Of a stretch of DNA of 64,000 nucleotides, positions 10,761-61,504 are shown one piece after another. The DNA lies in contig CAWFVX010000013.1 in assembly GCA_963819345.1 (NCBI GenBank), forward strand, positions 22,852-86,851. The letters run 5' to 3'. The position numbers and the translations under genes are program-made. Positions within the stretch are counted from its first letter, which is position 1. Each line of letters begins with the position of its first letter. The notes under the pieces are model-generated. The model did not search any database and was not told where the DNA came from. It was given only the letters and a program-made list of their open reading frames with translations. Origin of the DNA: an uncultured Alphaproteobacteria bacterium (GTDB taxonomy: Bacteria > Pseudomonadota > Alphaproteobacteria > Acetobacterales > Acetobacteraceae).

Positions 10761-10841
10761 CCGACGACAAGGTCGTTTGACGCTGGCTTCCTCTCGCGAT
10801 ACGCAAACCGCGCTTTCACTTTATCCGACGCAGGAGACCCA

Positions 10842-12885: not shown

Positions 12886-12891
12886 GCAACG

Positions 12892-13092: not shown

Positions 13093-13108
13093 TAGCGCCC
13101 ATGCCCTG

Positions 13109-20444: not shown

Positions 20445-20516
20445 TCTCCCCCCCGTGTTAAGAGTTTGGCAACTATTGCCGTGGTTCCGTGTCCGGGTTT
20501 TCGCTGGGAAGCCTGC

Positions 20517-26300: not shown

Positions 26301-27064
26301 ACATGACTGCGGACGCTGGTTGCTTCAGGCCTGCCGGAACCGCCGACCTGACGCTGCACGAGGGAAAGACGTTCCACCAGTATACCGACATTTGGGACAC
26401 AAGACCGCGCTACAGCGTCGCATCCTCCGCCGGCAACTCGGCCGCCGCCCGGCACTACCGTCTCGTCTTCCGCGACATCGCCCGATCCAACGATGAGCGC
26501 ACAATGATCGCCTGCATCGCGCCGCCCAGTACGGTGTTCGGCCATACCGCAACCGTTGAGAAGACCCCCTGGGAACGCCCGATCGCTTCGGCTCTGGCAC
26601 TGTGCGCGCTGTTCAACTCGTTCCCGTTCGATTGGCTGGTGCGGCAGAAGGCGGCGACGCACCTTAGTCTGTATCTGCTGCGAGGGCTACCCGTCCCGGC
26701 CTTCAGCGCTAGCGAGAGTCAATTCCTGGCCGGCGCGGCGCTACGTCTGTCCTGCAATCACTCGGGGTATGATGAACTCTGGCGAGATCAGGCTGGCGCG
26801 GTGCATGGGTTGGCGGGATGGGCGCTGCGGGCCGAAATCGATGCCGTAGTGGCGCGTCGCTACGGGCTTGACCGCAGCCAATATGACCACCTGCTACGAG
26901 CTTTCAGCCATCGTTCCTACCCAGAAGCTCCCGCGCTCTGCCTTGCGGCCTTCGATAAGGCCGGGAATGTTGAGGGCCGGGACTCCGATTCGTTCGAGAG
27001 GCGCCCCCCTGCCTCGAAAACACCAGCTCAACTCGGTCGGGCGTCACAGCGCAGGCTGGTGTAA
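23393..27064 (+). CDS. Large gamma-class N6-adenine DNA methyltransferase with a C-terminal specificity-like region (Type IIG/ISP/PglX-like architecture)
   Basis: 1223-aa ORF; SAM motif I IVDPASGSGHFLVEA precedes catalytic motif IV VLGNPPWD; C-terminal YRLVFRDIARSNDERTMIA and LFNSFPFDWLVRQ blocks; GTGA overlap with the helicase stop (alternative ATG at 23435). Confidence 0.85.
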   Translation: MTLDLGDCVLVGSAMTESFLRDGLAPVAHVSSGVEAEWDSLRASLRTGGAQRVHQHVTTKLASTFGYGRPLRQHSVSTREGQEDGGWFLQGANGERLRAWSIPSEIDLDGPDRSARAFRSSPTRIAQRVLLASGERAGLLTNGEVVRLLLCDPSRSDSHLSVGINGWRQEKLPPDSFRILKALAGAEGLTRLSGVLEAARLHQVRVTTSLRRQAREAIVGFINALPDRIGMDPAALWHEGLILVYRLLFILKLESPAEAGTGFSFASTRLWRESLSPNQALGSLVRRHLDQGHDTGRMLESGLRRLFAIFHGGLHCSELNIVPLGGALFGASTTGVLDRIDWGDRAVALLLDRLIWIVSARGERTRVHYGSLDVEDLGSIYEGLLEQEPGIATEPLVRIRRGKMEAVVAAMEQQGDIQSGQFYLRTGMGRKASGSFYTPHEFVRFVVRETLDPKIAALSPLEDPHPARLLTLKIVDPASGSGHFLVEACRHLGEALLTACRLCDERGLHDRIAALPDPDETIAAYLPSRGFSERRARAICRRLVAVHCLYGCDRNKLAVELAKLSLWLESYAEGLPLTFLDHRLVHGDALTGPFFASLSTLPVTGGVLDPLLAGGVADRLDTSLQEARRLVATLNASIGRDITDLRTKQAAKDRLDRVLQPLRQLARAWAGAAMLRERDGDDVWLALASGVAETGFWPDALTDRQAKLLAAGADAVAWDVVFPEVFPGGFSVVLGNPPWDVVLPNTKDFVADYDPAIFDARTRTQRAAIEQAVLARPGVAAAFDAYRLGFDQLKRIAARLYRHQRVRAGSETTAGNLDLFRLFAERNIGLSGADGTIGVLMPSAFHANEGTTGIRRLYLQEAALRLCLSFENRRRIFDIDSRFKFDLIVAQRPGPTKELRCGFYLDRIEDAADPTKIMTYTTQFLDETGGTPLELRGITDQRIAEAVFAQPGRLGTWCAERHIRFGNDLHMTADAGCFRPAGTADLTLHEGKTFHQYTDIWDTRPRYSVASSAGNSAAARHYRLVFRDIARSNDERTMIACIAPPSTVFGHTATVEKTPWERPIASALALCALFNSFPFDWLVRQKAATHLSLYLLRGLPVPAFSASESQFLAGAALRLSCNHSGYDELWRDQAGAVHGLAGWALRAEIDAVVARRYGLDRSQYDHLLRAFSHRSYPEAPALCLAAFDKAGNVEGRDSDSFERRPPASKTPAQLGRASQRRLV

Positions 27065-33441: not shown

Positions 33442-33787
33442 GGCTTCCTCACGAGTTCGGTTTCTGTATAGATAGCACGAACGCAACTGCCGCTCCAGCG
33501 GGCCCGAAGTGCCGTGATCACGTCTCGGACGCCAATTGGCCGCAAAGGCTTGCGATTCTTGCCCTCTGGCAAGCGCGATGAGCGAGCAGCCGCTTGGTGC
33601 AGTTGCGCCGTCGAAAGTTGTCGACCGTGCTGAGAACGGGGTGAAACGGTTGGCCTATCGACCACACCCGGCGCTTGGGATAAGCTTGGCTAGCCGAACC
33701 CCGATCCAGCGTGATTCCAAGAAAATCCTCGTCTGGTCGTGACCATCCGGCCACCGCAGCGGTCCTCGGCAGCTCATGGGGGAAGGT

Positions 33788-34519
33788 ATGTTCGTCGGGA
33801 CGCGGACCAGACATGCTGGTTTTTTCCACACCGTCCTGGTCATCCTCCTGGCAACATGCCCCTTCCTGCCGGCCCATGCACAGCCGACCGAGCAAGCGCC
33901 CGATACGATGGAGGCGCGGCTGCTTGCCTGCGCTGCCTGTCACGGCAAGCAGGGCCAGGGGGTCGAGAGTGGCTATTTCCCGCGTCTCGCGGGAAAGCCC
34001 GCTGGTTATCTGATGAACCAGCTTGTCGCGTTCCGCGATGGCCGCAGACGCTATCCGCCGATGAACTATCTGCTGGAATACCTCCCGGACGCGTATCTGC
34101 AGAAAATGGCTGACTATTTCGCTGCGCTGCGCCCACCGCCGCTGGCGCTGTCGGTGGCCGACGTCAGCCAGACTCTGCTGGAACAGGGCCGCAGCATCGT
34201 CACTGCGGGCGACCCGCAGCGCGGCGTGCCAGCCTGCCAGCGCTGCCACGGCCCGGCGCTGACCGGCATGGAGCCGGGCATCCCCGGCCTTGCCGGCCTG
34301 CATGCAACCTACATCAGTGCTCAGCTTGGCGCCTGGCGTTACGGCACCCGCACGGCAAAGGTGCCGGACTGCATGCAATTCATCGCTGCGAGCCTGACCG
34401 AACGCGATGTCGCCGCCGTCGCGGCCTGGCTCGCGTCACAGCCGATCCCCCCCGATCCGTCCCCGGCGCCGAAGGGCACTCTGCCAATGCCGCTCACGTG
34501 CGGCAGCGAACCACCGTAA
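33788..34519 (+). CDS. Dihaem cytochrome c (c4-like)
   Basis: Two CXXCH motifs (CAACHG, CQRCHG); signal peptide; ATG 33788 follows GGGGGAAGG. Confidence 0.8.
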   Translation: MFVGTRTRHAGFFHTVLVILLATCPFLPAHAQPTEQAPDTMEARLLACAACHGKQGQGVESGYFPRLAGKPAGYLMNQLVAFRDGRRRYPPMNYLLEYLPDAYLQKMADYFAALRPPPLALSVADVSQTLLEQGRSIVTAGDPQRGVPACQRCHGPALTGMEPGIPGLAGLHATYISAQLGAWRYGTRTAKVPDCMQFIAASLTERDVAAVAAWLASQPIPPDPSPAPKGTLPMPLTCGSEPP

Positions 34520-34529
34520 AGGAGGTGTG

Positions 34530-35758
34530 ATGCGGGTCCTGATGACGCTCCTCCTGCTCGGTACTAGCGCCCGTCACGGCGTGGGCCGACGATTCGGCGC
34601 TGATCGCGCGCGGCGAATATCTTGCTCGCGCCGGCGACTGCATTGCCTGCCATACCAATCCGGGTGGCGCGCTATTCGCCGGCGGCCTGCCCATGCCGAC
34701 GCCGTTCGGCACGATCTATTCATCAAACATCACGCCCGATCCCGCGACCGGCATCGGCAAGTGGAGCGCTGACGACTTTTACGGCGCCGTGCATTTCGGC
34801 CGCTTTCCCGACGGTGGATTGATCTACCCGGCGATGCCGTTCGGGTCCTACACCAAGGTCACGCGCGCGGATTCCGACGCAGTCTTCGCTTATCTGCGGT
34901 CCGTGACGCCCGTGCATCAAGCGAATCGAGAGCACGACCTGCGGTTTCCCTACAACAACCGCGCGCTTATCCTCGGTTGGCGTACGTTGTTCTTCACCGA
35001 GGGCGAGTACAAGACAGATCCGGCCAAATCAGATGAGTGGAACCGGGGAGCCTACCTTGTACAGGGCCTTGGCCACTGCGCGATGTGTCACTCACCGATC
35101 AACATGCTCGGCGGCAGCTCTGAAATCGAAGGCGTTCGAGGGTGGCCTGATCCCAATGCAGAATTGGTACGCTCCCTCTTTGACATCGAACAAGGAGGCA
35201 GGGCTGGGCGAATGGAGCATCGAGGAAATCACTCAGCTTTTGCGCACCGGGGTATCGAACCGCGGCGCGGTGTACGGGCCGATGGCGGAAGTCACCTTTC
35301 ATAGCCTGCAGTACCTCGACGACACCGATGTGAAAGCGATGGCGGTCTATCTGAAGGGACTCGGCCAGGGCTCGCCGCTTACACTGGCACTATCGGGCGT
35401 GCCGTCGACGGAAAGCAGTCTACTGTTGGCGTTTGGACAGACGGTTTACACAACCCATTGCGCCGTTTGCCACGCCGCTGACGGCCGCGGGATGCCGCCG
35501 GAATATCCGCCACTGGCAGGTAATCCCTCGATCCAAATGGAGTCAGCGGTGAACCCGATCCGCATGGTGCTGAACGGCGGCTTCCCGCCCGGGACCGAGG
35601 GAAACCCCACTCCCTATGGTATGCCGCCATTCGCCCAGAGCCTGTCGGATGACGAGGTGGCAGGAGTCGTGACCTATATCCGAGCGGCCTGGGGCAACCG
35701 GGGACCGGCGGTGTCTGCGCGCCAGGCCAATGAATTGCGCCTGGCACCGGTGGAGTGA
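34530..35758 (+). pseudogene. Trihaem cytochrome c (dehydrogenase cytochrome-subunit type), read in three frames
   Basis: ATG 34530 after AAGGAGG; signal MRVLMTLLLL, then ..VLAPVTAWADDSALIARGEYLARAGDCIACH in the next frame (junction at ggtac, 34560-34564); second haem CAMCH; junction near 35113 to ..ALKSKAFEGGLIPMQNWYAPSL; third haem CAVCH. Confidence 0.75.
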
Positions 35759-35765
35759 TGTGGCG

Positions 35766-35954
35766 ATGATCAATTCCGACCCCGCCACTGGCGATCCCGA
35801 GACCGGCGCACCAACCGACAAGGTGGTGATGCCCATCCTGCGCACGGGCGCCCCAGGCGCCATTGTGCTGGCCGGCATCGCCACCGCTATCGTCGTGGCG
35901 ATCTGGTTCGCGTTCTACCTCTTGGTATTTGTGCCTCGAGCAGCAATGCCATGA
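35766..35954 (+). CDS. Small single-TM protein (possible oxidase subunit IIa-like)
   Basis: 63-aa ORF with one TM helix AIVLAGIATAIVVAIWFAFYLLVF; ATGA overlap with the subunit II gene. Confidence 0.45.
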   Translation: MINSDPATGDPETGAPTDKVVMPILRTGAPGAIVLAGIATAIVVAIWFAFYLLVFVPRAAMP

Positions 35955-36520
35955 GCCAACCTCCATCTTCGCCGCATGATGACACTGTCGGCCGGGTCGA
36001 ACAGATTGAGCGGCGCTGGGCAGCAGTTGCCGTTGTCGTCATTGTGGTGTTCGTGGTCGTGGCGACCCTCGCTGGCGTGCATCATTCATCGCTGCCACAG
36101 CCCCGCGTCGAGACGGCTGACCCACGCACGCTACATCTGACCGGAGAATTCATCGAGAGCAATCTCGGCAGCGCGCTCGAAGCGGATGGGTCCGTCACCG
36201 TCCGAGCAGTTGGTCAGCAGTATTCGTTCACGCCGCCCTGCGTTGTTGTTCCCGCCGGCATGCCGGTCACGTTCCGCGCTACCAGCGCTGATGTCGTGCA
36301 CGGGTTTCTGATCGACCAGACGAACATAAATCTCATGCTGGTGCCAGGCTATATCTCGGTTTTCACCACCCGCTTCGGTGCCCCCGGCGAGCGGCATATG
36401 CCGTGCCACGAATTCTGCGGCACCGGCCACGAGGGGATGTGGGGACAGATCAAGATCGTCGACAAGGCGGCCTTCACGCAGATGGCGGCTGACCGGCGGA
36501 GGGTAACCTGTGTCCAGTAA
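35951..36520 (+). CDS. Cytochrome c oxidase subunit II, B-family (ba3-like), CuA centre
   Basis: One N-terminal TM helix; CuA ligands VVHGF ... CHEFCGTGHEGM; no fused cytochrome c domain. Confidence 0.85.
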   Translation: MSQPPSSPHDDTVGRVEQIERRWAAVAVVVIVVFVVVATLAGVHHSSLPQPRVETADPRTLHLTGEFIESNLGSALEADGSVTVRAVGQQYSFTPPCVVVPAGMPVTFRATSADVVHGFLIDQTNINLMLVPGYISVFTTRFGAPGERHMPCHEFCGTGHEGMWGQIKIVDKAAFTQMAADRRRVTCVQ

Positions 36521-38135
36521 TCCGCGATTAATCCTTGCCCATTTCTGGCTGGCCTTCATCGGCTTCGGCGGGGCGCTGTTGCTCGGCGCTTGGCAGATGT
36601 TCGTCCGCAGCCCGTTGGCGGGCTGGATCAGCAATCCGGAATGGTACTACCGCTCCGTCACTGCTCACGGCACGACGATGGCATATGTGATGCCGACCCT
36701 GGTCGCGATGGGCTTCGGCTATTTTGTGACCGAGGCGGCTCTGAAGCGCCCCCTGATCGGGCTGTATTGGGCGTGGCTGGGATTTGCGCTGGTCGCGATA
36801 GGCACGGCCATGGCGGTTGTCCCGGTCGCCATGGGGCGTGCCTCGGTGCTCTACACATTCTATCCGCCGCTCGTCGGCGACCCATTCTACTATCTGGGCG
36901 TCGTGCTGGTCGTCGTTGGCTCGTGGATCTGGGTCACACTGATGTCGGCGAACCTTTACTACTGGAAGCGAGACAATCCCGGCGCGCCGGTTCCGCTTGC
37001 AATGTTCGCGACGGTCGCGGGTTCCTATCTCTGGGGCTGGACCGCAGTCGGCGCGGCGTTGGAACTGTTGTTTCAGATCCTGCCCGTGGCGTTGGGCCTG
37101 CGAGCGACGATCGACGCTGGTCTCGCCCGTGTCTTCTTTTCCTGGACGCTGCACGCGATTGTCTATTTCTGGCTGATGCCGGCATACATTGCGTACTACA
37201 CGATCGTGCCGCGGGCGATCGGCGGGCGGCTGTACAGCGATACGATGGGCCGGCTTGCCTTCATCCTGTTTTTGGTCGTGGCGATGCCGATCGGCATTCA
37301 CCACCTGTTCGAGGACCCGCAGGTCGGCTCCGGCTTCAAGTTTCTCCACTCGGTGTTTACCGCACTCGTCACCGTGCCGACACTGCTGACGGTATTTACT
37401 ATCTGCGCGTCGGTTGAAATCGCCGGACGGCTGCGCGGCGGCAAGGGCGCGCTGGGTTGGATCGCCGTGCTGCCCTGGCACAACCCGGTGATGCTTGGCG
37501 CGGCGCTGTCCTTCGTCATGCTGGGCTTCGGCGGGGCCGGCGGCCTGATCAACATGAGCTATCAGCTCAATAGCACGATCCACAATACGCAGTGGGTGAC
37601 CGGGCATTTTCACCTAATCTTCGGTGGCGCCATCGTCATAATGTATTTCGTGATCGCCTACGATGTCTGGCCGCATCTGACCGGGCGGGCATTGGATGAT
37701 TTCCGGCTGATGCGGTGGCAGCTATGGACGTGGTTCGTCGGCATGATCGTGCTGACGTTCCCATGGCACTATGTCGGTATCCTGGGCATGCCACGCCGCA
37801 TGGCGTTCTATGACTACACCGATCCGGTCATTGCGGCGCAGGCAGCCTCGGTCGTGATGTCGGTGGTCGGTGGCCTGATCCTGGTGGTTTCCGGCACGCT
37901 GTTCCTGCTGGTGCTGGCACGTGGTCAGTGGGCGCCACGGAACCAGCCTGGCGCCTACCGCTTCAGCGTGGCGACTCACCCACCGCGCACGCTGCCCGCT
38001 GCCCTGAACGGCCTTGGGCTATGGGTCGGGCTGATGCTCGCACTGACGATTGTGAATTACGGCTTCCCGATAGCCCATGTGCTGGCGATCCCTGGCACGG
38101 CCGTGCCCGCCGTCCCTGTCGGCTCAGCGCGATGA
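36510..38135 (+). CDS. Cytochrome c oxidase subunit I, B-family (ba3-like)
   Basis: 541-aa polytopic ORF; GTG start overlaps the subunit II end; haem/CuB His-containing helices (WTLHAIVYFWLMPAY, GIHHLF, VTGHFHLIFGG). Confidence 0.88.
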   Translation: MSSNPRLILAHFWLAFIGFGGALLLGAWQMFVRSPLAGWISNPEWYYRSVTAHGTTMAYVMPTLVAMGFGYFVTEAALKRPLIGLYWAWLGFALVAIGTAMAVVPVAMGRASVLYTFYPPLVGDPFYYLGVVLVVVGSWIWVTLMSANLYYWKRDNPGAPVPLAMFATVAGSYLWGWTAVGAALELLFQILPVALGLRATIDAGLARVFFSWTLHAIVYFWLMPAYIAYYTIVPRAIGGRLYSDTMGRLAFILFLVVAMPIGIHHLFEDPQVGSGFKFLHSVFTALVTVPTLLTVFTICASVEIAGRLRGGKGALGWIAVLPWHNPVMLGAALSFVMLGFGGAGGLINMSYQLNSTIHNTQWVTGHFHLIFGGAIVIMYFVIAYDVWPHLTGRALDDFRLMRWQLWTWFVGMIVLTFPWHYVGILGMPRRMAFYDYTDPVIAAQAASVVMSVVGGLILVVSGTLFLLVLARGQWAPRNQPGAYRFSVATHPPRTLPAALNGLGLWVGLMLALTIVNYGFPIAHVLAIPGTAVPAVPVGSAR

Positions 38136-51624: not shown

Positions 51625-52884
51625 ATGGCTTCCATTGCCCCAATGACCACCACGCATGATCCGCTGAACCAGCCGAACCCAAGGATCGCCGCCAACGTCA
51701 TGCACTTCGCGCGCCTGCTGCGCCGCGCCGGGCTACCAGTTGGCCCGGCGGAGACGATCGCCGCGCAGGAGGCACTGACCCACATCGATCTCGCCGCCAA
51801 GACACAGGCGTGTACCGCGCTGCGCACCGCGATGATCCATCGCCACGAGCACAGGGAGGTGTTCGACCAAGCCTTCGCCTTGTTCTGGCGCGACCCTTCC
51901 GCCGCCGAACAGGCCGCCGCGATGGCCCTGCTGGAGGCACAGAAAAAGCCTAAGCCCGACCGCGCGCCGCCCGCCTCTCGCCGCGTCGCCGAAGCCTTCG
52001 CGTCGAAAAAGGACAAGCCGCCGCAGCCGAAGGACGAGCCGCCCCCTGTCGACATGTCGATGACGGTGTCCGAGCAGGAGCGGCTCCAGCATATGGATTT
52101 CGAGGCGATGGGCGCCGCTGAAATCAACGAAGCCAAGCGTGAGATCCGCCGCTTGGTGCTGCCGCTGGACCTTCGCCGCACCCGCCGTCTCCGCCCCGAC
52201 CAGAACGGACCCGTTACCGACCTGCGCCGCACCATTCGCGCCAGCCTGCGTCAGGGCGGCGAGATCCTTACCATCGCGCGCAACCGGCGTATCGTCCGGC
52301 CGCCGCCGCTGGTCGTGTTGTGCGACATTTCCGGCTCGATGTCGCGGTATGCCCAGATTCTGCTGCACTTCCTGCACGCAGTGACCAACGACCGCGACCG
52401 CGTCCATGTCTTTCTGTTCGGTACTCGCCTGTCCAACGTCACCCGGCAACTGAAGGCGCGCGATCCCGAGGTTGCATTCCAGATGATCGCTCACGTTGTA
52501 CCCGACTGGTCCGGCGGCACGCGCATCGGCGAGGCCGTCGCCAGCTTCAACCGCCTTTGGGCGAAGCGAGTGCTGGGTCAAGGCGCCGTGGTGCTGCTGA
52601 TCACCGACGGGCTGGACCGCGACGGCGCCCACGGCCTGGCCGAGAACATGGACCGACTCCACCGCTCCTGCACAAGGCTGGTATGGCTCAACCCGCTGTT
52701 GCGCTGGACCGGGTTCGAGCCAAAATCGCAGGGCATCAAGGCGATGCTGCCGCATGTCGACGAATTCCGCCCGGTGCATAATCTGGCCAGCCTGCGGTCT
52801 TTGATCGAACTCGTTGTCACGCCCCGCCCCCCAAGCCTTACGAAGATAACAAGCCTTACGAAGATAAAGGGAACCAGCCGATGA
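51625..52884 (+). CDS. VWA-domain protein, CoxE family
   Basis: N-terminal FARLLRRAGLPVGPAE, then the VWA MIDAS region VVLCDISGSMSRY; start uncertain (51625 or 51643). Confidence 0.78.
   Translation: MASIAPMTTTHDPLNQPNPRIAANVMHFARLLRRAGLPVGPAETIAAQEALTHIDLAAKTQACTALRTAMIHRHEHREVFDQAFALFWRDPSAAEQAAAMALLEAQKKPKPDRAPPASRRVAEAFASKKDKPPQPKDEPPPVDMSMTVSEQERLQHMDFEAMGAAEINEAKREIRRLVLPLDLRRTRRLRPDQNGPVTDLRRTIRASLRQGGEILTIARNRRIVRPPPLVVLCDISGSMSRYAQILLHFLHAVTNDRDRVHVFLFGTRLSNVTRQLKARDPEVAFQMIAHVVPDWSGGTRIGEAVASFNRLWAKRVLGQGAVVLLITDGLDRDGAHGLAENMDRLHRSCTRLVWLNPLLRWTGFEPKSQGIKAMLPHVDEFRPVHNLASLRSLIELVVTPRPPSLTKITSLTKIKGTSR
52832..52867. repeat. Perfect 18-bp tandem duplication at the 3' end of coxE
   Basis: caagccttacgaagataa x2 (52832-52849 and 52850-52867); encodes the duplicated SLTKI(T) tail. 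Confidence 0.9.
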
Positions 52885-53210
52885 GCAGCACCACCGAAGT
52901 CGAGGATGTCCTGGGCACCGCCGCCGCATGGCACGCCGCCGGAGAGCAGGTTGCGGTGGCGACCGTGACCGAAACCTGGGGAAGTTCGCCTCGTCCCGCG
53001 GGCAGTCAGATGGCGGTGACCAGATCCGGCCGCATGGCTGGGTCGGTCTCGGGCGGCTGCATCGAGGGCGCGGTCGCTGACGCGGCGATGAAGACGATCG
53101 AAACCGGCAGCCCGCAATTGCTGGACTTTGGGGTGAGCAACGAGCGGGCGTGGGAGGTCGGCCTCGCCTGTGGCGGCAAGGTCAAGGTGTTTGTCGAGAA
53201 ACTGAGCTGA
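52881..53210 (+). CDS. XdhC/CoxI-family protein (N-terminal-domain type)
   Basis: 109-aa ORF; ATVTETWGSSPRPAGSQMAV...GSVSGGCIEG pattern. Confidence 0.75.
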   Translation: MSSTTEVEDVLGTAAAWHAAGEQVAVATVTETWGSSPRPAGSQMAVTRSGRMAGSVSGGCIEGAVADAAMKTIETGSPQLLDFGVSNERAWEVGLACGGKVKVFVEKLS

Positions 53211-53350
53211 GGAGTTGCCTCCAACCAACTCATAAGCTCACGGCGTCGGGGAGGAGGCACCGGAGCTGCCGCGAAATCTCGCGGTTCACGCCTCCCCTTT
53301 CCAGCGGATGCCGGTATGCTGGCGCAAACACAGTCGCGGGATGAACATCC

Positions 53351-54049
53351 ATGACCCCAGAAGTCCTTGCCGCCGTGGCGCAAGCAAAACAGGAAAAACG
53401 ACCCGTCGTCCTGGCAACGCGTTTGCCCTCCGGTGAGCAGCACTTGCTGCCAGACCCGAACGCTCCGGCGGATCTAAACGAGGCCGCCGCCCGGGCGCTG
53501 GACCGCGACCAAAGCGGAACCGTAAAGCTCGGGGACGTGGACTGGTTTCTACAGGCCTACAATCCGCCGCTCCGGCTGATCGTTGTTGGTGCGGTGCATA
53601 TTGCTCAGGCGCTGGTGCCGTTCGCGGCGCCGTGCGGGTTCTCGGTCACTGTGGTCGACCCACGCCGGTCGTTCGCTTCGGACGAGCGGTTTCCGAACGT
53701 TGAGATCTCCACCGATTGGCCTGATGAGGCGCTGGACACCTTCGCCCCAGACAGCCGCACCGCTGTCGTCACCCTGACGCACGATCCGAAGCTGGACGAC
53801 CCGGCGCTGGATCGCGCGCTGAAGTCGCAGGCGTTCTACATTGGCGCCCTTGGTTCCCGCCGGACCCATGCCGCGCGCTTGAAACGACTTCGCGAACTGG
53901 GCCATCAGGACAACGCCTTATCCCGCATCCGCGGTCCGGTCGGCCTGAATATCGAAGCCGTCACCGCGCCGGAAATCGCCTTGTCGATCATCGCCGAGAT
54001 CGTCGGCGTCCGCCGCAACGCGCCGCTGCCGCCGAAACCCGCTCCATGA
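53351..54049 (+). CDS. XdhC-family protein (Rossmann-domain type)
   Basis: LIVVGAVHIAQALV dinucleotide-fold strand; THDPKLDDPAL; YIGALGSRRTH. Confidence 0.75.
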   Translation: MTPEVLAAVAQAKQEKRPVVLATRLPSGEQHLLPDPNAPADLNEAAARALDRDQSGTVKLGDVDWFLQAYNPPLRLIVVGAVHIAQALVPFAAPCGFSVTVVDPRRSFASDERFPNVEISTDWPDEALDTFAPDSRTAVVTLTHDPKLDDPALDRALKSQAFYIGALGSRRTHAARLKRLRELGHQDNALSRIRGPVGLNIEAVTAPEIALSIIAEIVGVRRNAPLPPKPAP

Positions 54050-55704
54050 AGTTTGGCCCGGTCCCGCTGGACGAGGCCCGCGGTGCCATCATGGCGCACA
54101 GCCAAAAGGTCGGCGAACGGATGATCCGCAAGGGATCGCTGCTGGATGACAAGGCGATCGAGGCGTTGCGGGCGGCCGGCCGGTCGGAGGTAATTTGCGC
54201 CCGCCTGGAACCTGGCGACGTTCCGGAAGACATCGCGGCCGATCGCCTTGCGACCCCCCTGCTGTCGCCGCTGATCGCCCGGTCGCGCGCCGCCACAGGG
54301 CGGGTGAACCTGTCCGCTGAGGTCCCTGGATTACTGCGTATCGACGTCGGCCGGATCGACCGGCTGAACAGCATCGACGAGGCGCTCACGATTGGCACGC
54401 TGCCGGACTATGCCGTTGTCGCGCCGAAAGACCTGATCGCGACGATCAAGATTATCCCGTTCTCGGTCCCTGGAAACGTCCTGTCGGTAGCGGAAGCTAT
54501 GGTTCGTCAAGGTACCAGTCCGCTGACGCTGCACCCGTTCCGGCACCTGAAGGTCGGTCTGGTGGTGACCGAACTCCCCGGCCTGAAGGACAGCGTCACA
54601 GACAAGACCATCGCGATCACCGAGGCCCGGATTTCCGCCCTGACCGGCTCCTTGCTGCCTCCGGTCCTTTGCGCACATGAGGAAGAAGCCATTGGCCGGG
54701 CGCTGGACGGACTGGTCGGCGGGGGGGGCGACTTGCTTTTGGTCATTGGCGCCTCGGCCGTGGTGGACCGACGAGACGTCGGGCCGGCTGGAATCATGCG
54801 GGCGGGCGGGGAAATCCTGCATTTCGGCATGCCGGTCGATCCGGGCAACCTCATCTGCCTTGGCCAGATCGGCGAAAGGCCGGCGTTGGTGCTGCCTGGA
54901 TGCGCTCGCAGCCCTAGCCTCAACGGTATCGACTTCGTGCTGACCCGCCTGTTCGCCGGCGTCCCGGTTACTCCGCGTGACATGATGCGGATGGGCGTCG
55001 GTGGCCTTCTGAAGGAGATGGAGACGCGGCCCATGCCGCGTGAAAAGGCGCCGGCGACGCCTAGGTCCGGTGCCGCGCCGCGCAGCGCGCCGGTGATTGC
55101 CGGGGTTGTTCTAGGGGCAGGCCGGTCTCGGCGGATGGCGCCCCACAACAAACTGCTCGTTACCGACAAGGCCGGCAAGCCCATGGTCGCCCGGGTCGTC
55201 GACAACGTCTTGTCTTCCAATGCCCGACCGATTCTGGTCGTGACCGGCCATCAGGCCGAGCAGGTGGAGCATGCGCTGGGCGGCCGGCCGGTGCGATATG
55301 TGTATGCGGCCGACTATGCCGATGGTCTGTCCGCCAGCCTGAAGGCCGGGATCGCCGCGGTGCCGCCGGAATGCGCCGCCGCCGTGGTCTGCCTCGGTGA
55401 CATGCCGCTGGTGACGGGCCGGATGATCGACCGATTGTTATCGATGTACGACCCCGAGGAAGGCCGGCTGATCGTGCTGCCGACGTTCCGTGGCAAGCAG
55501 GGCAATCCAATGCTGTGGGACAAAAGGTTCTTCCCGGAGATCCTGCAGATCGGCGGCGATACGGGCGCGCGGTTTTTGATCGGTAAACACGCCGAATTCG
55601 TGTGCGAGGTCGAAATGGCGGACGATGCGGTGCTCCGGGACTTTGACACGACGGAATCGTTGACGACGCTGCCAAAGGGCATGCGGCCGGAGGGGGTCGG
55701 GTAA
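54046..55704 (+). CDS. Molybdopterin-binding domain fused to a MobA/MocA-like nucleotidyltransferase
   Basis: ATGA overlap with xdhC; MoeA/CinA-like GDLLLVIGASAVVDRRD region; C-terminal AGVVLGAGRSRRM NTP-transferase motif. Confidence 0.72.
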   Translation: MKFGPVPLDEARGAIMAHSQKVGERMIRKGSLLDDKAIEALRAAGRSEVICARLEPGDVPEDIAADRLATPLLSPLIARSRAATGRVNLSAEVPGLLRIDVGRIDRLNSIDEALTIGTLPDYAVVAPKDLIATIKIIPFSVPGNVLSVAEAMVRQGTSPLTLHPFRHLKVGLVVTELPGLKDSVTDKTIAITEARISALTGSLLPPVLCAHEEEAIGRALDGLVGGGGDLLLVIGASAVVDRRDVGPAGIMRAGGEILHFGMPVDPGNLICLGQIGERPALVLPGCARSPSLNGIDFVLTRLFAGVPVTPRDMMRMGVGGLLKEMETRPMPREKAPATPRSGAAPRSAPVIAGVVLGAGRSRRMAPHNKLLVTDKAGKPMVARVVDNVLSSNARPILVVTGHQAEQVEHALGGRPVRYVYAADYADGLSASLKAGIAAVPPECAAAVVCLGDMPLVTGRMIDRLLSMYDPEEGRLIVLPTFRGKQGNPMLWDKRFFPEILQIGGDTGARFLIGKHAEFVCEVEMADDAVLRDFDTTESLTTLPKGMRPEGVG

Positions 55705-55708: not shown

Positions 55709-57163
55709 CTAGGTATCTTGCAGGCCGCACAGTGACCACGGCACGCCATTCCACCACCACATCACGTGTCTATACCAAAGACCGAGCCGAGCGGACAGCG
55801 ACGGGCGGACGGGGTCGTAGACCTCGATATTGGCCATCATGCCAGCATCTTCGTGCCGCAGGACATGGCAGTGGAATACGAACCGACCCAGGATCAGGGG
55901 GTCGGTGAACGGCATCCGCAGCTTCACCTGACCACGTTCCGGTACAAGCACGGTATCAACATAGCCCGTGAACGGGACCGGCTTCCCGTTGGTCTCAACG
56001 ACCTGGAAGCTGATCTGGTGAATGTGGAAGATGTGCATATCGTCGGAATCGTTCCGTATCGTCCATTCCTCAATGTTGCCCAAGGGTATACGGATATCCA
56101 TCCGGCTCTCGTCGAACAACTTGCCGTTGACAAAAAAGAGTTGGCGGTCCGCCTTCGTCATAGTGGTCTGGGAAAAAACGACCTCGCGCGTCGCGTCGAT
56201 CCGGACCGCGCGCAGATCCGGGGGCGCGACTGTGGATGCTGCCGCGATCGTCGAAGGTAGTTCGTCTCCGGCGACATCCAATGAGCCGATCTCCCGGTCC
56301 GGCGTTTGTTCTGATCCGGTGCCCGTCATGATTCCTTTCGCCACCAGTGCGTAGCGGCCAACTTCCCCGGCATCGACGAGAACGTCGACGCGGGCGCTTG
56401 GCGAAACGTCCAGTACGTAGGTGGAACGTTCATTGACCGTTGCCTGGCCATCTTCTGCCACGACGCGAAAGCGATGGCCGTTCAATGCAATATGGAGCGC
56501 TCTGTCGGCACTCTGGTTGGTGAAGCGCCACAGTTGAGTTTCCCCCGGCCGCATGGCTTCGTTGGTCGTCAGCTGACCGTTCACCGACTGAACGATGCCA
56601 TGCATGGTGTCGTCGACCTCGGCATTGCCAGTGTCGTCGTCAAACACCATGTCCTTTAATACAAACAACCGCTGCGTCATCGATATCGGTTCTGGTGGTT
56701 CAACTATGAGCGTCCCGCTAAGGCCGCTCATGATCTGATGTTCGGCTATGCCGTGTACATGGGCGTGATACCAGTATAGACCTGGTGGTTGGGTGAGCGG
56801 TATCCTTACCTCGTAGTCGAAGCTATGGCCCGGTTGAATAACGAGATGCGGATTGTCGCTGTTGCCAAGGGGCGAGGTCTGAATGCCATGAAAGTGCAGG
56901 TTGGTCGGTTGCGACAGGTGGTTGACGAGCATCAGGCGCATTACGTCGCCTGGATGGACGTGCAGCACCGGTCCCGCGTAGACACCATTGTAGGTGGCGC
57001 CATCGAGTTCGAGGTTTCCGACCTGAACCTTTTCCTCTGCCGCCACCAATGTCGTCGACAGAACGCCGTCATGGCTAAAGATTTCGGTCGGGCTACCCGG
57101 ATCGTTCGCGCGCGCGATTGAAGTGCCGAGCAGTATCGCCAGTACGAGAAGGGCGATTCGCAT
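55709..57163 (-). CDS. Three-domain multicopper oxidase
   Basis: All four copper motifs present: LHFHG, WYHAHVHG, HIFHIHQ and HCHVLRHEDAGMM; Sec-type signal [19 protein letters not shown]; ATG 57163 overlaps the MCP stop (TGATG). Confidence 0.88.
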   Translation of the reverse strand: MRIALLVLAILLGTSIARANDPGSPTEIFSHDGVLSTTLVAAEEKVQVGNLELDGATYNGVYAGPVLHVHPGDVMRLMLVNHLSQPTNLHFHGIQTSPLGNSDNPHLVIQPGHSFDYEVRIPLTQPPGLYWYHAHVHGIAEHQIMSGLSGTLIVEPPEPISMTQRLFVLKDMVFDDDTGNAEVDDTMHGIVQSVNGQLTTNEAMRPGETQLWRFTNQSADRALHIALNGHRFRVVAEDGQATVNERSTYVLDVSPSARVDVLVDAGEVGRYALVAKGIMTGTGSEQTPDREIGSLDVAGDELPSTIAAASTVAPPDLRAVRIDATREVVFSQTTMTKADRQLFFVNGKLFDESRMDIRIPLGNIEEWTIRNDSDDMHIFHIHQISFQVVETNGKPVPFTGYVDTVLVPERGQVKLRMPFTDPLILGRFVFHCHVLRHEDAGMMANIEVYDPVRPSLSARLGLWYRHVMWWWNGVPWSLCGLQDT

Positions 57164-59043
57164 CAGGCCGCGCGTTTTCCGCGGATCCATTCGACCAGCG
57201 CACGTGGGGCCGCGGTGGAATCCCATGGGAAGCGGATGCTGGCTTCCTCACCATCCCGCAAGATCGTGCCGCTCAGATCTGGCAGACCCCCCACACGAAG
57301 GACAACGGCCGTTCCGGCCCCGATCCGGTGCTCCGACTGGACCCGTGCACCGCCAAAGCTGAGATCCAGGCAAATCACCGGCAGAGGGTTGCCGTTCAGG
57401 ACCAGCGTGGCCGGCAGATTGATCGAAACGCGCTCATCCTCCCGCCGGTTGGCGGCGTCCGACGACGTACGAACGATGCGGACCATTACATTTCGCAGCT
57501 CCGAAATATGCTCGGCTACCTCTCCAGCCACCGAGCGCATTTCGTTCACGGCCGCATCGGTCCCTTGTGCTTCTTGCGAAACCGACTTTACTTGAGCAGA
57601 GACTATCCGCATCGCCTCGGCTGTGCCAAGCACGTTGCGCGCAATCTCACCAGTTGCAGCCGTCTGCTGTTCCGCGGCTGCCGCAATCGTTTGAGTAATG
57701 CCCTCGATCGCGGCCACCCGGCCCACCATTTCCCCAACCACTCTCACCGCGTCGTGGGTAGCGCTTTGTACACTGCTGACGGCTCGCGCGATTTCCTCGG
57801 TGGATCGCGCGGTTTGTGTGGCCAGGGTCTTGACCTCGCCGGCAACCACAGCAAAGCCGCGACCGGCCTCACCCGCGCGGGCCGCCTCGATTGTCGCGTT
57901 CAGCGCCAGCAAATTGGTTCGTCCGGCGATGTCTCGGATCAACTGGGCGACCGCGCCTATCTGGCCCATCGACGCCGACAGCGCATCGATAATCGTGCGC
58001 GCTTGTTCGCCTGCCCGCGCAGTGCTCGCGATTTCGGCAGTGGAAACGGTAATCTGGGAGGCGATTTCGCTCGCCGAGCTTGAGAGCTTCTCCCCCGCGG
58101 CGGCGACGATCTCGCAGCTGTGCAGCGCGTCGTTGCTGGCGCCGGCTGCCGAGTCCACGCTCGCCAGCATGCGGGCCGCGGAGGCGGCGAGTTCCCCCGC
58201 CCGATCTGACAGAAGAACGCCGCTTCGAGAGGATCGTTCGGCGACAGTCGTGGTCTCGCGCTCGATGCTGTCCGCGGCGCTGCGCAAGGCTTCCACCTTC
58301 TCGGTCTCAGCTCGCTCGTGTTGCTCCTCACGTTCCGCGCCGGCCCGGGCGTTTTGTTGCATCGCCTCGCGGAACACGGCCGCTGCGCGTGCGACACCCC
58401 CGATCTCATCGCGGCGCGCAGACAGCCGGGGCGGGACGGCGAGATCCAAATCCCCCGCGGCCAGACGGGCAATGATGCGGGAAAGTTGACCCAAGGGGCG
58501 CGACAGATCGCGGCCCAGAACAAAGCCAACCCCAAGAGCAATGCCGACGGCGACGGCGATCTGAATCAGCACGACACGCGTGCTGCGACCAGCCGTCTCA
58601 TCCGCGTCGTCGCGCGCTTCCAAACCGTCGGCGGCAAACTTCTGCACCAGCTTCGTCAATGACCGATCAGCTTGCGTCATCCGATCAGTTAATTCCGGCG
58701 CAGGTGTTTCCGCCAACGAGGCCAGCAGTCCGCGCGTTTTTTTGCCCGCATCCCGGGCAGTGTCGGAAGCCGCTCGGTCCAGTGCGACATCGAGCAGGCT
58801 GAGCACCTTTTGCAGATCGCCTGTCGCGCCGACCGTCCCGCCGGCTGCCTGCTGGCTGTTCTTGAACCGCAGGAACTCGTTCTGCGCTTGGTTGACGTAA
58901 GACATACCCATGAACGCATGATCGAAGATGCCGATCGCCAGACGCCCCATTTGCGATGCCTGTTGCTGTGCCAGCACGCCAAGCAGGGCGATGATGGCGA
59001 CAAAGCCGAGGCACGCCGCCAGGATTTTCATACGCACGGACAT
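57163..59043 (-). CDS. Methyl-accepting chemotaxis protein with a C-terminal PilZ domain
   Basis: Two TM segments flanking a periplasmic helical domain; HAMP; signalling hairpin [31 protein letters not shown]; PilZ motifs RREDER (RRxxxR) and DLSFGG (DxSxxG). Confidence 0.88.
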
Positions 59044-59080
59044 CAAGGATTCCTGTCGAGAAAGGCAGCTGGCAGCAATG

Positions 59081-59402
59081 TCACTTAACCGTTACGGTCA
59101 TCTTCATGCTTGGATGGATACTGCAGCGGATCTTGAAGCGCCCGGCCTTGTCGAACGCATACTTTACGGTCTCTCCCGGTTTCTGCAAACCGAGATCCGT
59201 CGCGTCGTCTTCGTCGTTCAGTACCCGTGATGTTATGGCTCACGTCGTCCTGGTTCTGGAAGTTCAGAGTATCACCCGGCTTCAGGTCAATCGATTTTTC
59301 GCTAAACTTCTGCCCACTCTGCGAGATGTTTGTCGCGGCGGCGCGAACATCGGCGCCTCCGGCGACGAGCATTGTCGCGAGCACGATGGCTGATACACGC
59401 AT
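59081..59402 (-). pseudogene. Type-1 (blue) copper protein, amicyanin-like, frame-disrupted
   Basis: Signal peptide plus His ligand in DVSHNI (ORF 59085..59402); after acg-g-gta (about 59225) the true tail [47 protein letters not shown] (ligand loop C-x2-H-x2-M) runs in another frame to the stop at 59081-59083. Confidence 0.7.
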
Positions 59403-59428
59403 GGTTCACACTCCTAGACTGATAACGT

Positions 59429-60808
59429 TTAGAAACGGGCTGCAGCCCAGATGCTGAAGTATAGGGCGTTGTTGGCGGCCGCATTATTGGTGACGCCGTC
59501 GAAGCGGAAGTAGCTGACGTATTGCACGGCTAGGCGGACATTGCCCCACGAGATAAAGGAGTCCGGCTTACCCCATGGCACATACGCGATCTCAGCGATC
59601 ATGCCCGAAGTGTTCGGACTACCGTTCGGCGTTGCCCAATACGCCGGGTCGCCGGTGCCGTTGGTTTGGAAATATTGGATCGAGGGCGTGACGGTCGCGC
59701 CTAGACTATACGACACATCGGCGCGAAACGTATTCAGGCCATGATATGGCAGCGAACCGTTGATTGCCCTGCTGGCGCCGAGCCAGCCGTCCTCGTGGAT
59801 CAGGGTGGCGTGTGCTGAGACTATGTCGCTGGTGACGCTGCGAGGATTGACGTAAAACTGGTAGTTGGCGTCCAGCGCGAGATCGGTGAACTGATCCGCT
59901 TGGCCGGGAACTTCGATGCCGCCGGGTGCCACGTTCCCATTCAGGCCGTATGTGCCGACTTCGAAGTAGTGGCGGCCAAAATCCTTCTGCAGTGCCAGGC
60001 GCCAGTAGGGAATGACTCCCAGCGTCTTGTCGGTATTGGCGACTGGAACGATCCCGGTGGCGTTCAGCACGTCATACCCAAGGCCCCGATAGAGGTCGAA
60101 CTCGGCGTAGACCAGACTGTTCCACATTGCATAGGCGCCGGCCCCGGCTACGCGTTGGCCCAGGCCGCCATCGATCAATGTCGCTGCCAAAGGCGTTGGG
60201 GCGAGCGGCGAGCTGTTATATGGAAAGCTCCAGACCGGCGTTGAATTCCACAGGTCAGACACGGTCGGGCTGTTGTTAGCAGTAAAACCGTAGACGAAAT
60301 CTTCGTCGAACAAGTCCGTGTCGTGCGCATAACGGATGTCAGCGTTGTCGACATGTCCCTGATCGGCGACGCCGTCATAGGTGAGTTGAATGAAGGCGCC
60401 AAACCCCCCGGCAATTTTCCCGGCGTAATACACGGACGCCTGGTCCATCGCGAAGTTGTTGTTGGAGGCGAAATGCGGGGCGGCCGGACCCGGCTGATCG
60501 TTGTTGGTGTGGGTGAAGGATAATTGCGTGGTGACCGCGAGCGGTAGGCCGTGTTTCTTATTATCGGTTGCGGTGTAGCCGTTCAGCTTAAATTCGCGGC
60601 CGAATTTGGTGAGCTGCGGCCCGAAAGCGCCAACGTGACATGCCGCACAGGGCTGTCCGGTCTGCCCCGCGAACGATGGAACGGCGGTAGCGGTGATGGG
60701 CCGGAGCAGCAGAAACGCGGCGAGGATAGACCCAAATGCAAACCGCAGGATGAACCGCAACCGCAGAATGCGGGCCCGCGGCGGAAGCGAGAGCTGCGGC
60801 ACACTCAT
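59429..60808 (-). CDS. Fused monohaem cytochrome c / outer-membrane beta-barrel (Cyc2-like architecture)
   Basis: Signal peptide, then a single CXXCH (PSFAGQTGQPCAACHVGAFGPQLTKFGREFKLNGY), then about 400 aa with an alternating beta-strand pattern ending in ..WAAARF (terminal Phe beta-signal). Confidence 0.7.
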   Translation of the reverse strand: MSVPQLSLPPRARILRLRFILRFAFGSILAAFLLLRPITATAVPSFAGQTGQPCAACHVGAFGPQLTKFGREFKLNGYTATDNKKHGLPLAVTTQLSFTHTNNDQPGPAAPHFASNNNFAMDQASVYYAGKIAGGFGAFIQLTYDGVADQGHVDNADIRYAHDTDLFDEDFVYGFTANNSPTVSDLWNSTPVWSFPYNSSPLAPTPLAATLIDGGLGQRVAGAGAYAMWNSLVYAEFDLYRGLGYDVLNATGIVPVANTDKTLGVIPYWRLALQKDFGRHYFEVGTYGLNGNVAPGGIEVPGQADQFTDLALDANYQFYVNPRSVTSDIVSAHATLIHEDGWLGASRAINGSLPYHGLNTFRADVSYSLGATVTPSIQYFQTNGTGDPAYWATPNGSPNTSGMIAEIAYVPWGKPDSFISWGNVRLAVQYVSYFRFDGVTNNAAANNALYFSIWAAARF

Positions 60809-61042
60809 TCTCTTAGCGCCACGCCCTAACGATCAGTGTAGACGGAAGCATGCTGCCTGGCTCTCCGAAAAAGGAGTTCTGATTAGGCCCGCAAACATGA
60901 ATTAAGGGTTAAAGCGATCCTGAAATACCTCGGGGTAAACGATCTCAGCACAGGGCATGTTAGAGCAGAGCAAAAACTCTTCTGTGCTCTGGTTTATGGA
61001 CGCCGGTGACCCTTGGTTTGCAGTGCAATCGAGAACATCTAT

Positions 61043-61060
61043 TTCTGTTCGATAACAGAA
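61043..61060. promoter_or_regulatory. Inverted repeat TTCTGTT-N4-AACAGAA upstream of the cytochrome-porin operon
   Basis: 7-bp perfect arms separated by cgat, 235 nt upstream of the operon start in a 480-nt non-coding spacer. Confidence 0.2.
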
Positions 61061-61291
61061 CCGATTCACTTGGCCGCGGAAGCAAGCAGTTGATTAAAGG
61101 CTAGCCAATAACAGCTGACCTTTCTCCGAAAGTTTTCCGAAGGGTGGGGCAGCAACGTTTCCGGCGCCCAGGGGGCCGGTGGGATTGAGCAGGACCTTGC
61201 CGAGGACCCTTCCGGCGTCGAAGGCAAGCCGCTGGGGAACCAAGCCTATTCGACCTGCGTTGGATCAGCGATAGACAAGCAGGAGGACGTT

Positions 61292-61504
61292 GTGGATCGG
61301 ATCAAAGTCTTGGACGAAACGCTGTGGCATCAGGTCCCCAAGGATGTGATCATCGAGGCCGAACATGCCGCGAAGGAGACCCCCGTTTGGATCGCTCGAC
61401 AGAGTAACGGCCATATTGTCGCGATGGACGGACCGGGAAACCCCGGAGTTGCTACCGGGGATATCACTTTCATCGCCGAGGTGGCGCCTAGCGTAGGACC
61501 GTGA
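61292..61504 (+). CDS. Hypothetical small protein
   Basis: 70-aa ORF; GTG start 5 nt after AGGAGG; followed by a hairpin; no recognisable motifs. Confidence 0.3.
   Translation: MDRIKVLDETLWHQVPKDVIIEAEHAAKETPVWIARQSNGHIVAMDGPGNPGVATGDITFIAEVAPSVGP

Follow-up and report, generated by a model that had tools for sequence, protein, structure and literature searches.

What would a chemoreceptor do in a gene set with an outer-membrane cytochrome and two copper proteins? The question is raised by four co-directional open reading frames (ORFs) on the minus strand, at 55709–60808 of a 64,000-nt stretch of DNA (assembly GCA_963819345.1, contig CAWFVX010000013.1, 22,852–86,851 of the forward strand; hereafter the window). 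In reading order they encode an outer-membrane barrel protein with a haem-attachment motif, a type-1 cupredoxin, a methyl-accepting chemotaxis protein (MCP) ending in a PilZ domain, and a multicopper oxidase (MCO). The ORF listing places all four genes where an earlier note on this DNA had put them and reproduces the spacing it gave: 26 nt lie between the barrel stop codon and the cupredoxin ATG, 37 nt between the cupredoxin TGA at 59081 and the MCP ATG at 59043, and the MCP stop and MCO start share a TGATG overlap at 57163. That note proposed an outer-membrane-to-periplasm electron conduit with its own taxis receptor, a proposal now supported by homology of the barrel protein to proteins bearing the signature of the iron-oxidising cytochrome Cyc2, by linkage of the barrel gene to that of a small electron carrier, and by the recurrence of sensor and MCO genes beside it. 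Judging from these sequence comparisons, an electron path of this kind coupled to behaviour, with Fe(II) as the likeliest donor, is the reading that we favour, and we give it about an even chance of being correct.

The barrel protein

Scans of the barrel protein against Pfam and NCBIfam returned no match of any kind at E ≤ 0.01, and its identity was therefore drawn from motifs shared with homologues and from its predicted fold. The protein has a hydrophobic leader that, as read from the sequence, ends in ITATA and is followed by the mature N-terminus VPSFAGQTGQPCAACHVGAFGPQL. Its only two Cys residues both lie in a single CAACH at residues 54–58, and its C-terminal residue is Phe. C54, C57 and H58 are invariant across 21 aligned homologues, and all full-length representatives carry the haem motif. 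The single CAACH and terminal Phe, together with the modelled barrel described below, agree with the CXXCH-bearing outer-membrane barrel of the earlier note.

The family is large, with more than 1500 homologues in one search and, in an exhaustive search, 2349 clusters at 50% identity, of which 462 have E-values under 1e-30. The 21 close homologues share a near-invariant AVPSFA(E/Q/G)QTGQPCAACHVGAFGPQL..GR.FKL segment. Among distant representatives (35–50% identity, full-length E-values of 1e-55 to 1e-100) the commonest form is A.PSFARQTG..C..CH...P.L; these E-values are for comparison with proteins bearing the Cyc2 motif, in a set that holds no named, experimentally studied Cyc2. All ten FARQT-type homologues whose database names were read are called 'hypothetical protein'.

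Cyc2 proteins are identified by an AXPXFAR[Q/K][T/Y] motif upstream of the CXXCH, described as unique to Cyc2, and a PXL motif downstream of it (Keffer et al. 2021, PMC8406198). The same study describes Cyc2 as a one-haem protein with a signal peptide and a porin of 16 strands similar to OprO/OprP, and reports that it has Fe(II) oxidase activity, as has every Cyc2 that has been tested. The window barrel reads A-V-P-S-F-A-G-Q-T, which agrees with the signature at 8 of 9 positions and departs from the strict motif by the replacement of Arg with Gly; in close relatives (at least 58% identical) the Arg position of the FAR motif is mostly occupied by E or Q. The PXL motif (P64-Q-L66) is invariant in the alignment, and five residues separate its proline from the haem His, compared with three in the FARQT-type relatives.

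An AlphaFold2 model of the barrel (pLDDT 72, pTM 0.73), in which the haem region is poorly modelled, has 18 strand segments that would make up about 16 strands. Foldseek matches it to porins of 16 strands, among which OprO/OprP reach the highest query-normalised TM-scores (0.48–0.49), and the length of 459 aa lies above the Cyc2 criterion of at least 365 aa. On account of the motif, the homology to FARQT proteins and the OprO/OprP-like fold of about 16 strands, the barrel is predicted to be a fused cytochrome-porin of the Cyc2 superfamily, belonging to a motif-variant clade. Going by the methods text of PMC8406198, sequences of this clade would fail the published PXFAR[Q/K][T/Y] screening filter. 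Cyc2 homologues have been noted before in Hyphomicrobiales and Acetobacteraceae, those of the Acetobacteraceae usually beside mono- or dihaem cytochromes.

Conservation of the cassette

The earlier note had suggested surveying the gene neighbourhoods of barrel homologues. Scanning one genome per species for relatives of the barrel gave 80 loci, whose six-frame translations were searched with the window proteins and a sensor-domain profile. The record titles of the carrier metagenome-assembled genomes (MAGs) mostly name soil, peat, bog, palsa or boreal lake. Labels of the loci include Rhodopila, Lichenicoccus, other Acetobacteraceae, Xanthobacteraceae, Rhizomicrobium, Caulobacterales, Telmatospirillum and Aliidongia, and further 'Ferrovum', Bryobacteraceae, Zoogloea, Thiobacillaceae and Nitrospirillum.

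A small redox carrier gene directly adjoins the barrel gene in 71 of the 77 loci that could be evaluated. In 62 of these loci it is a cupredoxin; in the other 9, which have 38–52% barrel identity, it is a monohaem cytochrome c, as confirmed by Pfam. Where wide flanks were available (54 loci), a sensor-domain protein is encoded within 5 kb of the barrel in 32 and an MCO in 23, the MCO being present in 11 of the 17 such loci with a barrel at least 65% identical to the query; the MCO is thus an accessory part of the cassette and not of its core. The complete set of four is found in 25 of the 80 loci, 19 with the gene order of the window (including six listed as cupredoxin-first because their ORF coordinates overlap) and 6 with other orders; labels among these 25 include Rhodopila, other Acetobacteraceae, Aliidongia, Telmatospirillum, Caulobacterales and 'Ferrovum' MAGs. 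Recurrence of the four-part cassette in several gene orders and taxa suggests that its components are functionally coupled.

Independent gene calls labelled with Pfam families gave the arrangements barrel-cupredoxin-MCP(PilZ)-MCO, barrel-cupredoxin-MCO and MCO-barrel-cupredoxin. The independently annotated flanking contexts are five (the window, L001, L082, L084 and L086), and they hold unrelated housekeeping genes, among them those for sulfite reductase, glutamate dehydrogenase, a peptide-binding protein and flagellar proteins. As linkage recurs in varied gene orders within unrelated flanks, the cassette is a conserved, compact and horizontally mobile functional unit. The earlier note had named residence of homologous operons inside cop/cus copper-resistance islands as the observation that would overturn its proposal; no cop, cus, CopC/D, P-type ATPase or CueR gene was found in the five annotated contexts, and across the 80 loci no neighbouring family recurs besides cupredoxin, sensor and MCO.

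Some loci depart from the common arrangement. In the most distant ones (38–42% barrel identity; L076 9196–10263, L081 6311–7720, L072, L077 and L078, with labels of Zoogloea, Thiobacillaceae and Sulfotelmatobacter) the barrel gene is followed by one for a monohaem cytochrome c, and flanking genes encode an HD_5 HD-domain protein, probably of the HD-GYP type, or else a HAMP histidine kinase accompanied by a likely response regulator. Two barrel paralogues, 38% identical to the query, occur in L007 (3613–7755), and L031 (1656–5682) has two nearby barrel genes, 57–58% identical to the query, with a cupredoxin gene after the first.

The cupredoxin

The cupredoxin gene of the window is frameshifted. 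At 322 nt its interval (59081–59402) is not divisible by 3 and is not one open frame: the 59 N-terminal codons, with the ligand His56 (in SHNIT), belong to a frame that runs to a TAA at 59085, and the C-x2-H-x2-M loop (CSIHPSM) lies in the +1 frame, which ends at the TGA at 59081. DNA alignment with L001, L002, L004 and L016, whose barrel proteins are 91–94% identical to that of the window, locates one extra G at about 59224–59226, where the window has ACGGGTA and the relatives ACGGTA or ACAGTA. As sequenced, the ORF scores 19.6 bits against Pfam Copper-bind, below the cut-off of 21.2; with one G removed it encodes 106 aa and passes at 41.2 bits, with ligands His56, Cys93, His96 and Met99. The genes of the relatives are intact. 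Of the type-1 copper protein described in the earlier note, the C-x2-H-x2-M loop is encoded as claimed; the single reading frame is not, the note having read through the frameshift.

Either the cassette is crippled here or the extra G is a homopolymer sequencing error, an explanation made plausible by several frameshifts in the related loci L001 and L016. Among PDB structures the repaired protein is closest to the electron-donating cupredoxin domain that some Cu nitrite reductases carry as a tether, and to amicyanin and plastocyanin.

Damage is also seen in other parts of related cassettes. In L004 a deletion (about 9762–11104) begins at the C-terminus of the MCP and reaches almost as far as the MCO does, the MCP of L001 is split (9765–11636), and L016 has frameshifts in barrel and MCO (8001–13097). 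These could reflect either frequent decay of the cassette or many indel errors in MAGs from long reads.

The multicopper oxidase

The MCO (484 aa) contains the Pfam domains Cu-oxidase_3, Cu-oxidase and Cu-oxidase_2, and its copper motifs are complete (H90xH, H133xH, H377xxHxH and H431-C-H-x3-H-x4-M, the last providing an axial Met at the type-1 (T1) copper), in accordance with the complete three-domain enzyme of the earlier note. The leader is of the Sec type and lacks a twin arginine, which some homologues have (RR in the n-region). No stretch of 30 residues holds more than three Met, and the protein is thus free of Met-rich tracts; here, too, the earlier description was accurate. The best NCBIfam models are CueO and CopA, both under their cut-offs (CueO 138.9 bits, cut-off 525; CopA, TIGR01480, 91.5 bits, cut-off 478.95). 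The closest solved relatives are an MCO of Thermus thermophilus (2xu9, E 2.6e-57), other laccases, and Campylobacter and CueO-type oxidases.

In the clade of the window MCO the last cupredoxin domain is followed by a conserved C-terminal tail (55709–55830) of the form ...L(Y)xHVWWWWxGVPWSLCGL. Four consecutive Trp are found in most close homologues and three in the window. The Cys of the tail is the only one besides the T1 ligand, and distant homologues have another tail in which a C-terminal Cys is retained. The tail could be a membrane anchor, a lid on the T1 site or a peptide that binds a partner.

The chemoreceptor and its sensor domain

The chemoreceptor (627 aa, starting at TTG 59046 or ATG 59043) comprises a first transmembrane segment, a periplasmic domain of about 125 aa, a second transmembrane segment, a HAMP domain, an MCP signalling domain (MCPsignal, 9e-27) and a C-terminal PilZ domain (residues 533–598, 29.9 bits, 7e-7). 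Both motifs by which PilZ binds cyclic diguanylate (c-di-GMP) are intact, RREDER at 534 (RRxxxR) and DLSFGG at 561 (DxSxxG). The MCP with a C-terminal PilZ domain seen in the earlier note is confirmed by these assignments. PilZ chemoreceptors are known from Azospirillum brasilense (Tlp1) and Azorhizobium (Cbp1), where c-di-GMP binding modulates taxis, be it aerotaxis or chemotaxis (PMC3604760, PMC6454048).

No Pfam family was found for the periplasmic sensor domain (about residues 30–160). Profile alignment of 36 non-redundant copies gave the conserved motifs YD, LDva.eRa.s.r.R and f.adgl..Rd.ae, where capitals mark conservation of at least 80%, small letters of at least 50%, and dots stand for variable positions. 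A search for homologues of the isolated domain returned 13 proteins, mostly fragments. In the data set the domain is carried by proteins with three kinds of output, all encoded beside barrel genes: MCP with PilZ (14), MCP alone (11) and HAMP-PAS-GGDEF-EAL (8). The MCO accompanies the MCP-PilZ form in 12 of 12 loci with wide flanks and the GGDEF-EAL form in 0 of 6, and the barrel identities of these two groups interleave (for example, 73–74% in both). Signal transduction, often through c-di-GMP, is accordingly a recurrent partner of this Cyc2 branch, as genes for MCPs, GGDEF-EAL proteins, histidine kinases, HD_5 proteins and cytochrome b561-MCP fusions adjoin those for barrels.

Two variants bear on the sensor. 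A sister cassette (L010, L014, L017, L021, L025, L026, L032 and L038) consists of barrel, cupredoxin and the sensor domain on a HAMP-(PAS)-GGDEF-EAL protein. In L045 (5655–7961) and L048, MAGs labelled Gammaproteobacteria and Steroidobacteraceae, the gene immediately upstream of the Cyc2-like one encodes a fusion of cytochrome b561 (Ni_hydr_CYTB) with an MCP signalling domain; that a receptor should take its input from a haem-b domain in the membrane is a further hint of redox sensing.

Proposed function and alternatives

In the conduit that we favour, the haem at the mature N-terminus of the barrel would take single electrons from a dissolved reductant. By homology Fe2+ would be the likeliest donor, because every Cyc2 that has been tested is an Fe(II) oxidase. 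The electron would be accepted in the periplasm by the amicyanin-like cupredoxin, in a role like that of rusticyanin or Cyc1 beside Cyc2. The MCO could act as the sink in either of two ways, by re-oxidising the cupredoxin at its T1 copper and reducing O2 to water, or by oxidising metal ions that enter through the porin; a parallel sink could be provided by respiratory oxidases whose genes lie elsewhere. The chemoreceptor would read a signal derived from the pathway and steer swimming, with PilZ letting c-di-GMP tune the response. To the homologies, domain content, intact catalytic and binding motifs and conserved linkage observed here, this scheme adds points that we infer, namely which way electrons flow, what donates them, their passage from cupredoxin to MCO and what the sensor binds; a specificity for Fe, Mn or Cu is conjectural.

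Several observations weigh against this scheme. The cassette encodes no inner-membrane or quinone-linked component, unlike the rus operon of iron oxidation, so that energy conservation is not evident. A protein electron donor to a three-domain MCO is unusual, and the MCO, present in only 23 of the 54 well-flanked loci, is not essential to the core. In the window itself the frameshift puts the Cys, His and Met copper ligands of the cupredoxin out of frame. The sensor domain shows no conserved Cys, His or Met pointing to metal or haem binding among its 36 copies. Finally, with E, Q or G in place of the FAR Arg and two extra residues before the PxL proline, the clade could differ from studied Cyc2 proteins in haem environment and in substrate.

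The same genes could serve primarily as a sensor, which we consider possible but unlikely. The Cyc2-like protein and cupredoxin would then carry a small inward current from extracellular Fe(II) or another reductant, the sensor domain would read the redox state of the cupredoxin or a product, and the MCO would reset the carrier with O2; the receptor would report the balance of reductant and O2 and steer cells to redox interfaces, and the sister cassettes would drive c-di-GMP turnover. Such a role is suggested by the attachment of one sensor domain to three outputs beside barrel-cupredoxin pairs (14 MCP-PilZ, 11 MCP, 8 HAMP-PAS-GGDEF-EAL), by the contrast between the oxidase-free three-gene GGDEF-EAL cassette (0/6) and the MCP-PilZ form that always has an MCO (12/12), by the histidine kinase, HD_5 protein or cytochrome b561-MCP fusion flanking distant barrel loci, and by the lack in the cassette of any encoded link to the inner-membrane respiratory chain; an iron-sensing role for Cyc2 has also been speculated on in published work. 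Respiratory partners can, however, be unlinked, adjacent signalling genes may simply regulate the pathway or provide taxis to its substrate, and the association of MCP-PilZ with MCO could stem from the shared descent of two sub-lineages. Moreover, no known receptor reads a cupredoxin, and the sensor lacks obvious redox or metal ligands. The idea that the four proteins compute an Fe(II)/O2 balance and drive a 'ferrotaxis', with the sister cassette wiring the same input to c-di-GMP synthesis and breakdown, is one that we regard as improbable; if true, it would give the first example of a taxis input dedicated to iron redox, and a Cyc2 relative would have a function outside metabolism.

Less likely again is that the conduit architecture serves another substrate, be it Mn(II), reduced humic or quinone compounds or peat phenolics with the MCO as the main catalyst, or that it runs in reverse to reduce Fe(III) or humics. 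MCOs are the classical Mn(II) and phenol oxidases. In the literature Cyc2 homologues are candidate components of Mn(II) oxidation in 'Ca. Manganitrophaceae', and a Cyc2 isoform has been tied to Fe(III) reduction in acidithiobacilli. Peat, bog, palsa and boreal lakes are the sources indicated by the titles of the carrier MAGs, and the altered haem motif (R to E, Q or G) would permit a changed specificity. An axial Met at the T1 copper of an MCO usually accompanies a lower potential, less suited to Mn(II) oxidation, and this is the ligand present here; all experimentally tested Cyc2 proteins, in addition, are Fe(II) oxidases, and the predicted small pore and internal haem suit a dissolved cation over bulky organics. 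Least probable of all, and in our view very unlikely, is copper homeostasis of the CopAB/PcoAB kind, in which the MCO would oxidise periplasmic Cu(I), the barrel would move copper across the outer membrane and the cupredoxin would handle copper. The pairing of a barrel gene with a periplasmic MCO does recall PcoAB, two of the four proteins need copper, and CueO and CopA are the best NCBIfam matches of the MCO. Yet its scores fall far short of the cut-offs (91.5 bits against 479 for CopA, 138.9 against 525 for CueO) and it has no Met-rich region, and the barrel, a Cyc2 homologue with an invariant haem motif, has no CopB/PcoB match. The copper-resistance genes sought (cop, cus, CopC/D, P-type ATPase, CueR) are missing from the Pfam-annotated flanks, and none is recurrent in the 80 loci. 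The core of the cassette is a barrel and an electron carrier, and the replacement of cupredoxin by cytochrome c in distant loci fits electron transfer and not copper handling. The CopAB reading was accordingly rejected on model cut-offs and genomic context, in line with the doubt that the earlier note had expressed about a CopA/CopB-like pair.

Locus layout and neighbouring genes

Positions of the cassette features are collected in the table. A promoter scan upstream of the barrel gene found no site resembling the sigma-70 consensus, which leaves the assignment of the operon promoter to the leader there presumptive. Every terminator-like match on the minus strand lies inside coding sequence, and these matches are uninformative on operon boundaries. 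No tRNA genes or Rfam families were found within the 64-kb window.

Table. Features of the cassette and its leader, in window coordinates
Feature	Position	Strand	Basis
Predicted Cyc2-superfamily fused cytochrome-porin, 459 aa	59429..60808	-	ORF, homologue motifs, AlphaFold2 fold
Haem-c attachment motif C54-A-A-C57-H58 of the barrel	60635..60649	-	Cys count, alignment
Amicyanin-like type-1 cupredoxin gene, 106 aa if repaired, +1 frameshift here	59081..59402	-	Frame reading, Pfam, DNA alignment
GGG run with one-base insertion	59224..59226	-	DNA alignment with L001, L002, L004, L016
Inner-membrane chemoreceptor, HAMP + MCPsignal + PilZ	57163..59046	-	Pfam
Putative periplasmic sensor domain of the chemoreceptor	58567..58959 (approximate)	-	Inferred from hydrophobic segments; profile alignment
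PilZ domain	57253..57450	-	Pfam, motif reading
Three-domain multicopper oxidase, 484 aa	55709..57163	-	Pfam, NCBIfam, ligand motifs
Non-coding leader of lower G+C 5' of the barrel gene, presumed promoter/regulatory region	60809..61291	-	Sequence inspection

Divergent from the barrel gene is a 70-aa ORF (61292–61504, plus strand) that has no Pfam family and whose conservation at this place is confined to the closest relatives (cluster c11); it may encode a regulator or be spurious. At the other end, plus-strand genes at 51625–55704 run convergent with the MCO gene, 4 nt lying between the two stop codons, and L001 is syntenic here. They encode a CoxE-like VWA protein, XdhC/CoxI, XdhC_C and a 552-aa protein with a MobA-like NTP_transf_3 domain, and are, by their predicted products, maturation genes for enzymes of the molybdenum-hydroxylase or CO-dehydrogenase type.

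A haem-copper oxidase cluster (33776–38135, plus strand) encodes two c-type cytochromes, a dihaem one of 247 aa and another of 241 aa, together with a short COX2 (189 aa) and COX1 (541 aa). Lying 21 kb from the cassette, it is a possible downstream acceptor for the cupredoxin. Further away, at 20466–27064 on the plus strand, the stop codon of a gene for a 976-aa SNF2/ResIII helicase overlaps the start of the next gene, for a 1223-aa Eco57I/MmeI-type N6-adenine methyltransferase; the pair is probably a restriction or defence module.

Significance

Already known are Cyc2 homologues in Acetobacteraceae and Hyphomicrobiales, the combination of Cyc2 with rusticyanin, hypothesised porin-MCO pairs (PcoAB) and MCP-PilZ receptors. 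In a full-text literature search, of incomplete coverage, no account turned up of a conserved cassette that joins a Cyc2-type gene to those for a cupredoxin, a dedicated sensor and an MCO, or of the motif-variant Cyc2 clade; the earlier note, too, had stated that the combination was not known to it.

Cyc2 is the main genetic marker by which iron-oxidising bacteria are recognised. Judged by record titles, the clade described here is common in Alphaproteobacteria of peat, bog, soil and boreal lakes, and surveys may miss it because its divergence falls in the motif on which Cyc2 screens rely. If these proteins oxidise Fe(II), iron oxidation would extend to abundant organotrophs of acidic wetlands, with effects on the coupled iron and carbon cycles, and would include a route ended by a soluble multicopper oxidase instead of a membrane oxidase. 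Linkage of the sensor domain to chemotaxis or c-di-GMP outputs offers a testable handle on how bacteria find Fe(II)/O2 interfaces and react to them.

Comparison with known systems

Like the Cyc2 of Acidithiobacillus ferrooxidans and Mariprofundus Cyc2PV-1, the barrel protein has a signal peptide and, only a few residues into the mature chain, a single CxxCH with A-x-P-x-F-A-.-Q-T on one side of it and P-x-L on the other. The porin fused to this segment has about 16 strands and resembles OprO/OprP, the whole measuring about 450 aa. Cyc2 genes, like that of the window barrel, are also often adjacent to one for a periplasmic electron carrier. The differences are the FAR Arg, which is Gly in the window barrel and Glu or Gln in most of the clade, and the spacing between the haem His and the PxL proline, five residues in place of the three of FARQT relatives.

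At the level of the operon the nearest likeness is to the rus operon of A. ferrooxidans (cyc2-cyc1-orf-coxBACD-rus), which encodes Cyc2, rusticyanin, a c4 cytochrome and an oxidase. Both systems place a Cyc2-type cytochrome, a blue-copper protein and an O2-reducing copper enzyme in one transcription unit. The window cassette differs in having a chemoreceptor and in lacking the dihaem Cyc1 and the aa3 oxidase; a dihaem cytochrome c with a COX2/COX1 cluster does occur in the window, unlinked, 21 kb off and on the other strand. Its cupredoxin is a minimal amicyanin-like protein of 106 aa rather than a rusticyanin, and its oxidase is a soluble three-domain MCO that cannot pump protons. That a small cupredoxin can pass electrons to the T1 copper of an enzyme with the MCO fold has a precedent in Cu nitrite reductases with a tethered cupredoxin (PDB 9cck, 6hbe), the best solved relatives of the repaired window cupredoxin (domain E-value 1e-7). 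In contrast to these, the window cupredoxin is a separate protein, and its partner would be a three-domain oxidase, not a trimeric two-domain nitrite reductase.

With PcoAB/CopAB the window locus shares an outer-membrane barrel gene adjoining that of a periplasmic MCO, and PcoAB has been proposed as a porin-periplasmic MCO system of Fe(II) oxidisers that would serve either to oxidise Fe(II) or to detoxify metals (He et al. 2017, PMC5566968). The window barrel, in contrast, is Cyc2-like, with a haem motif and about 16 strands against 10–12 for PcoB, and the MCO lies below the CopA and CueO cut-offs, has no Met-rich segments and is accompanied by no other cop/pco genes nearby. The chemoreceptor resembles Tlp1 and Cbp1 in its periplasmic sensor, HAMP domain, MCP signalling domain and C-terminal PilZ domain with RxxxR and DxSxxG. 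It differs from them in a sensor without family annotation that is linked to Cyc2-like and cupredoxin genes and is found on GGDEF-EAL proteins as well.

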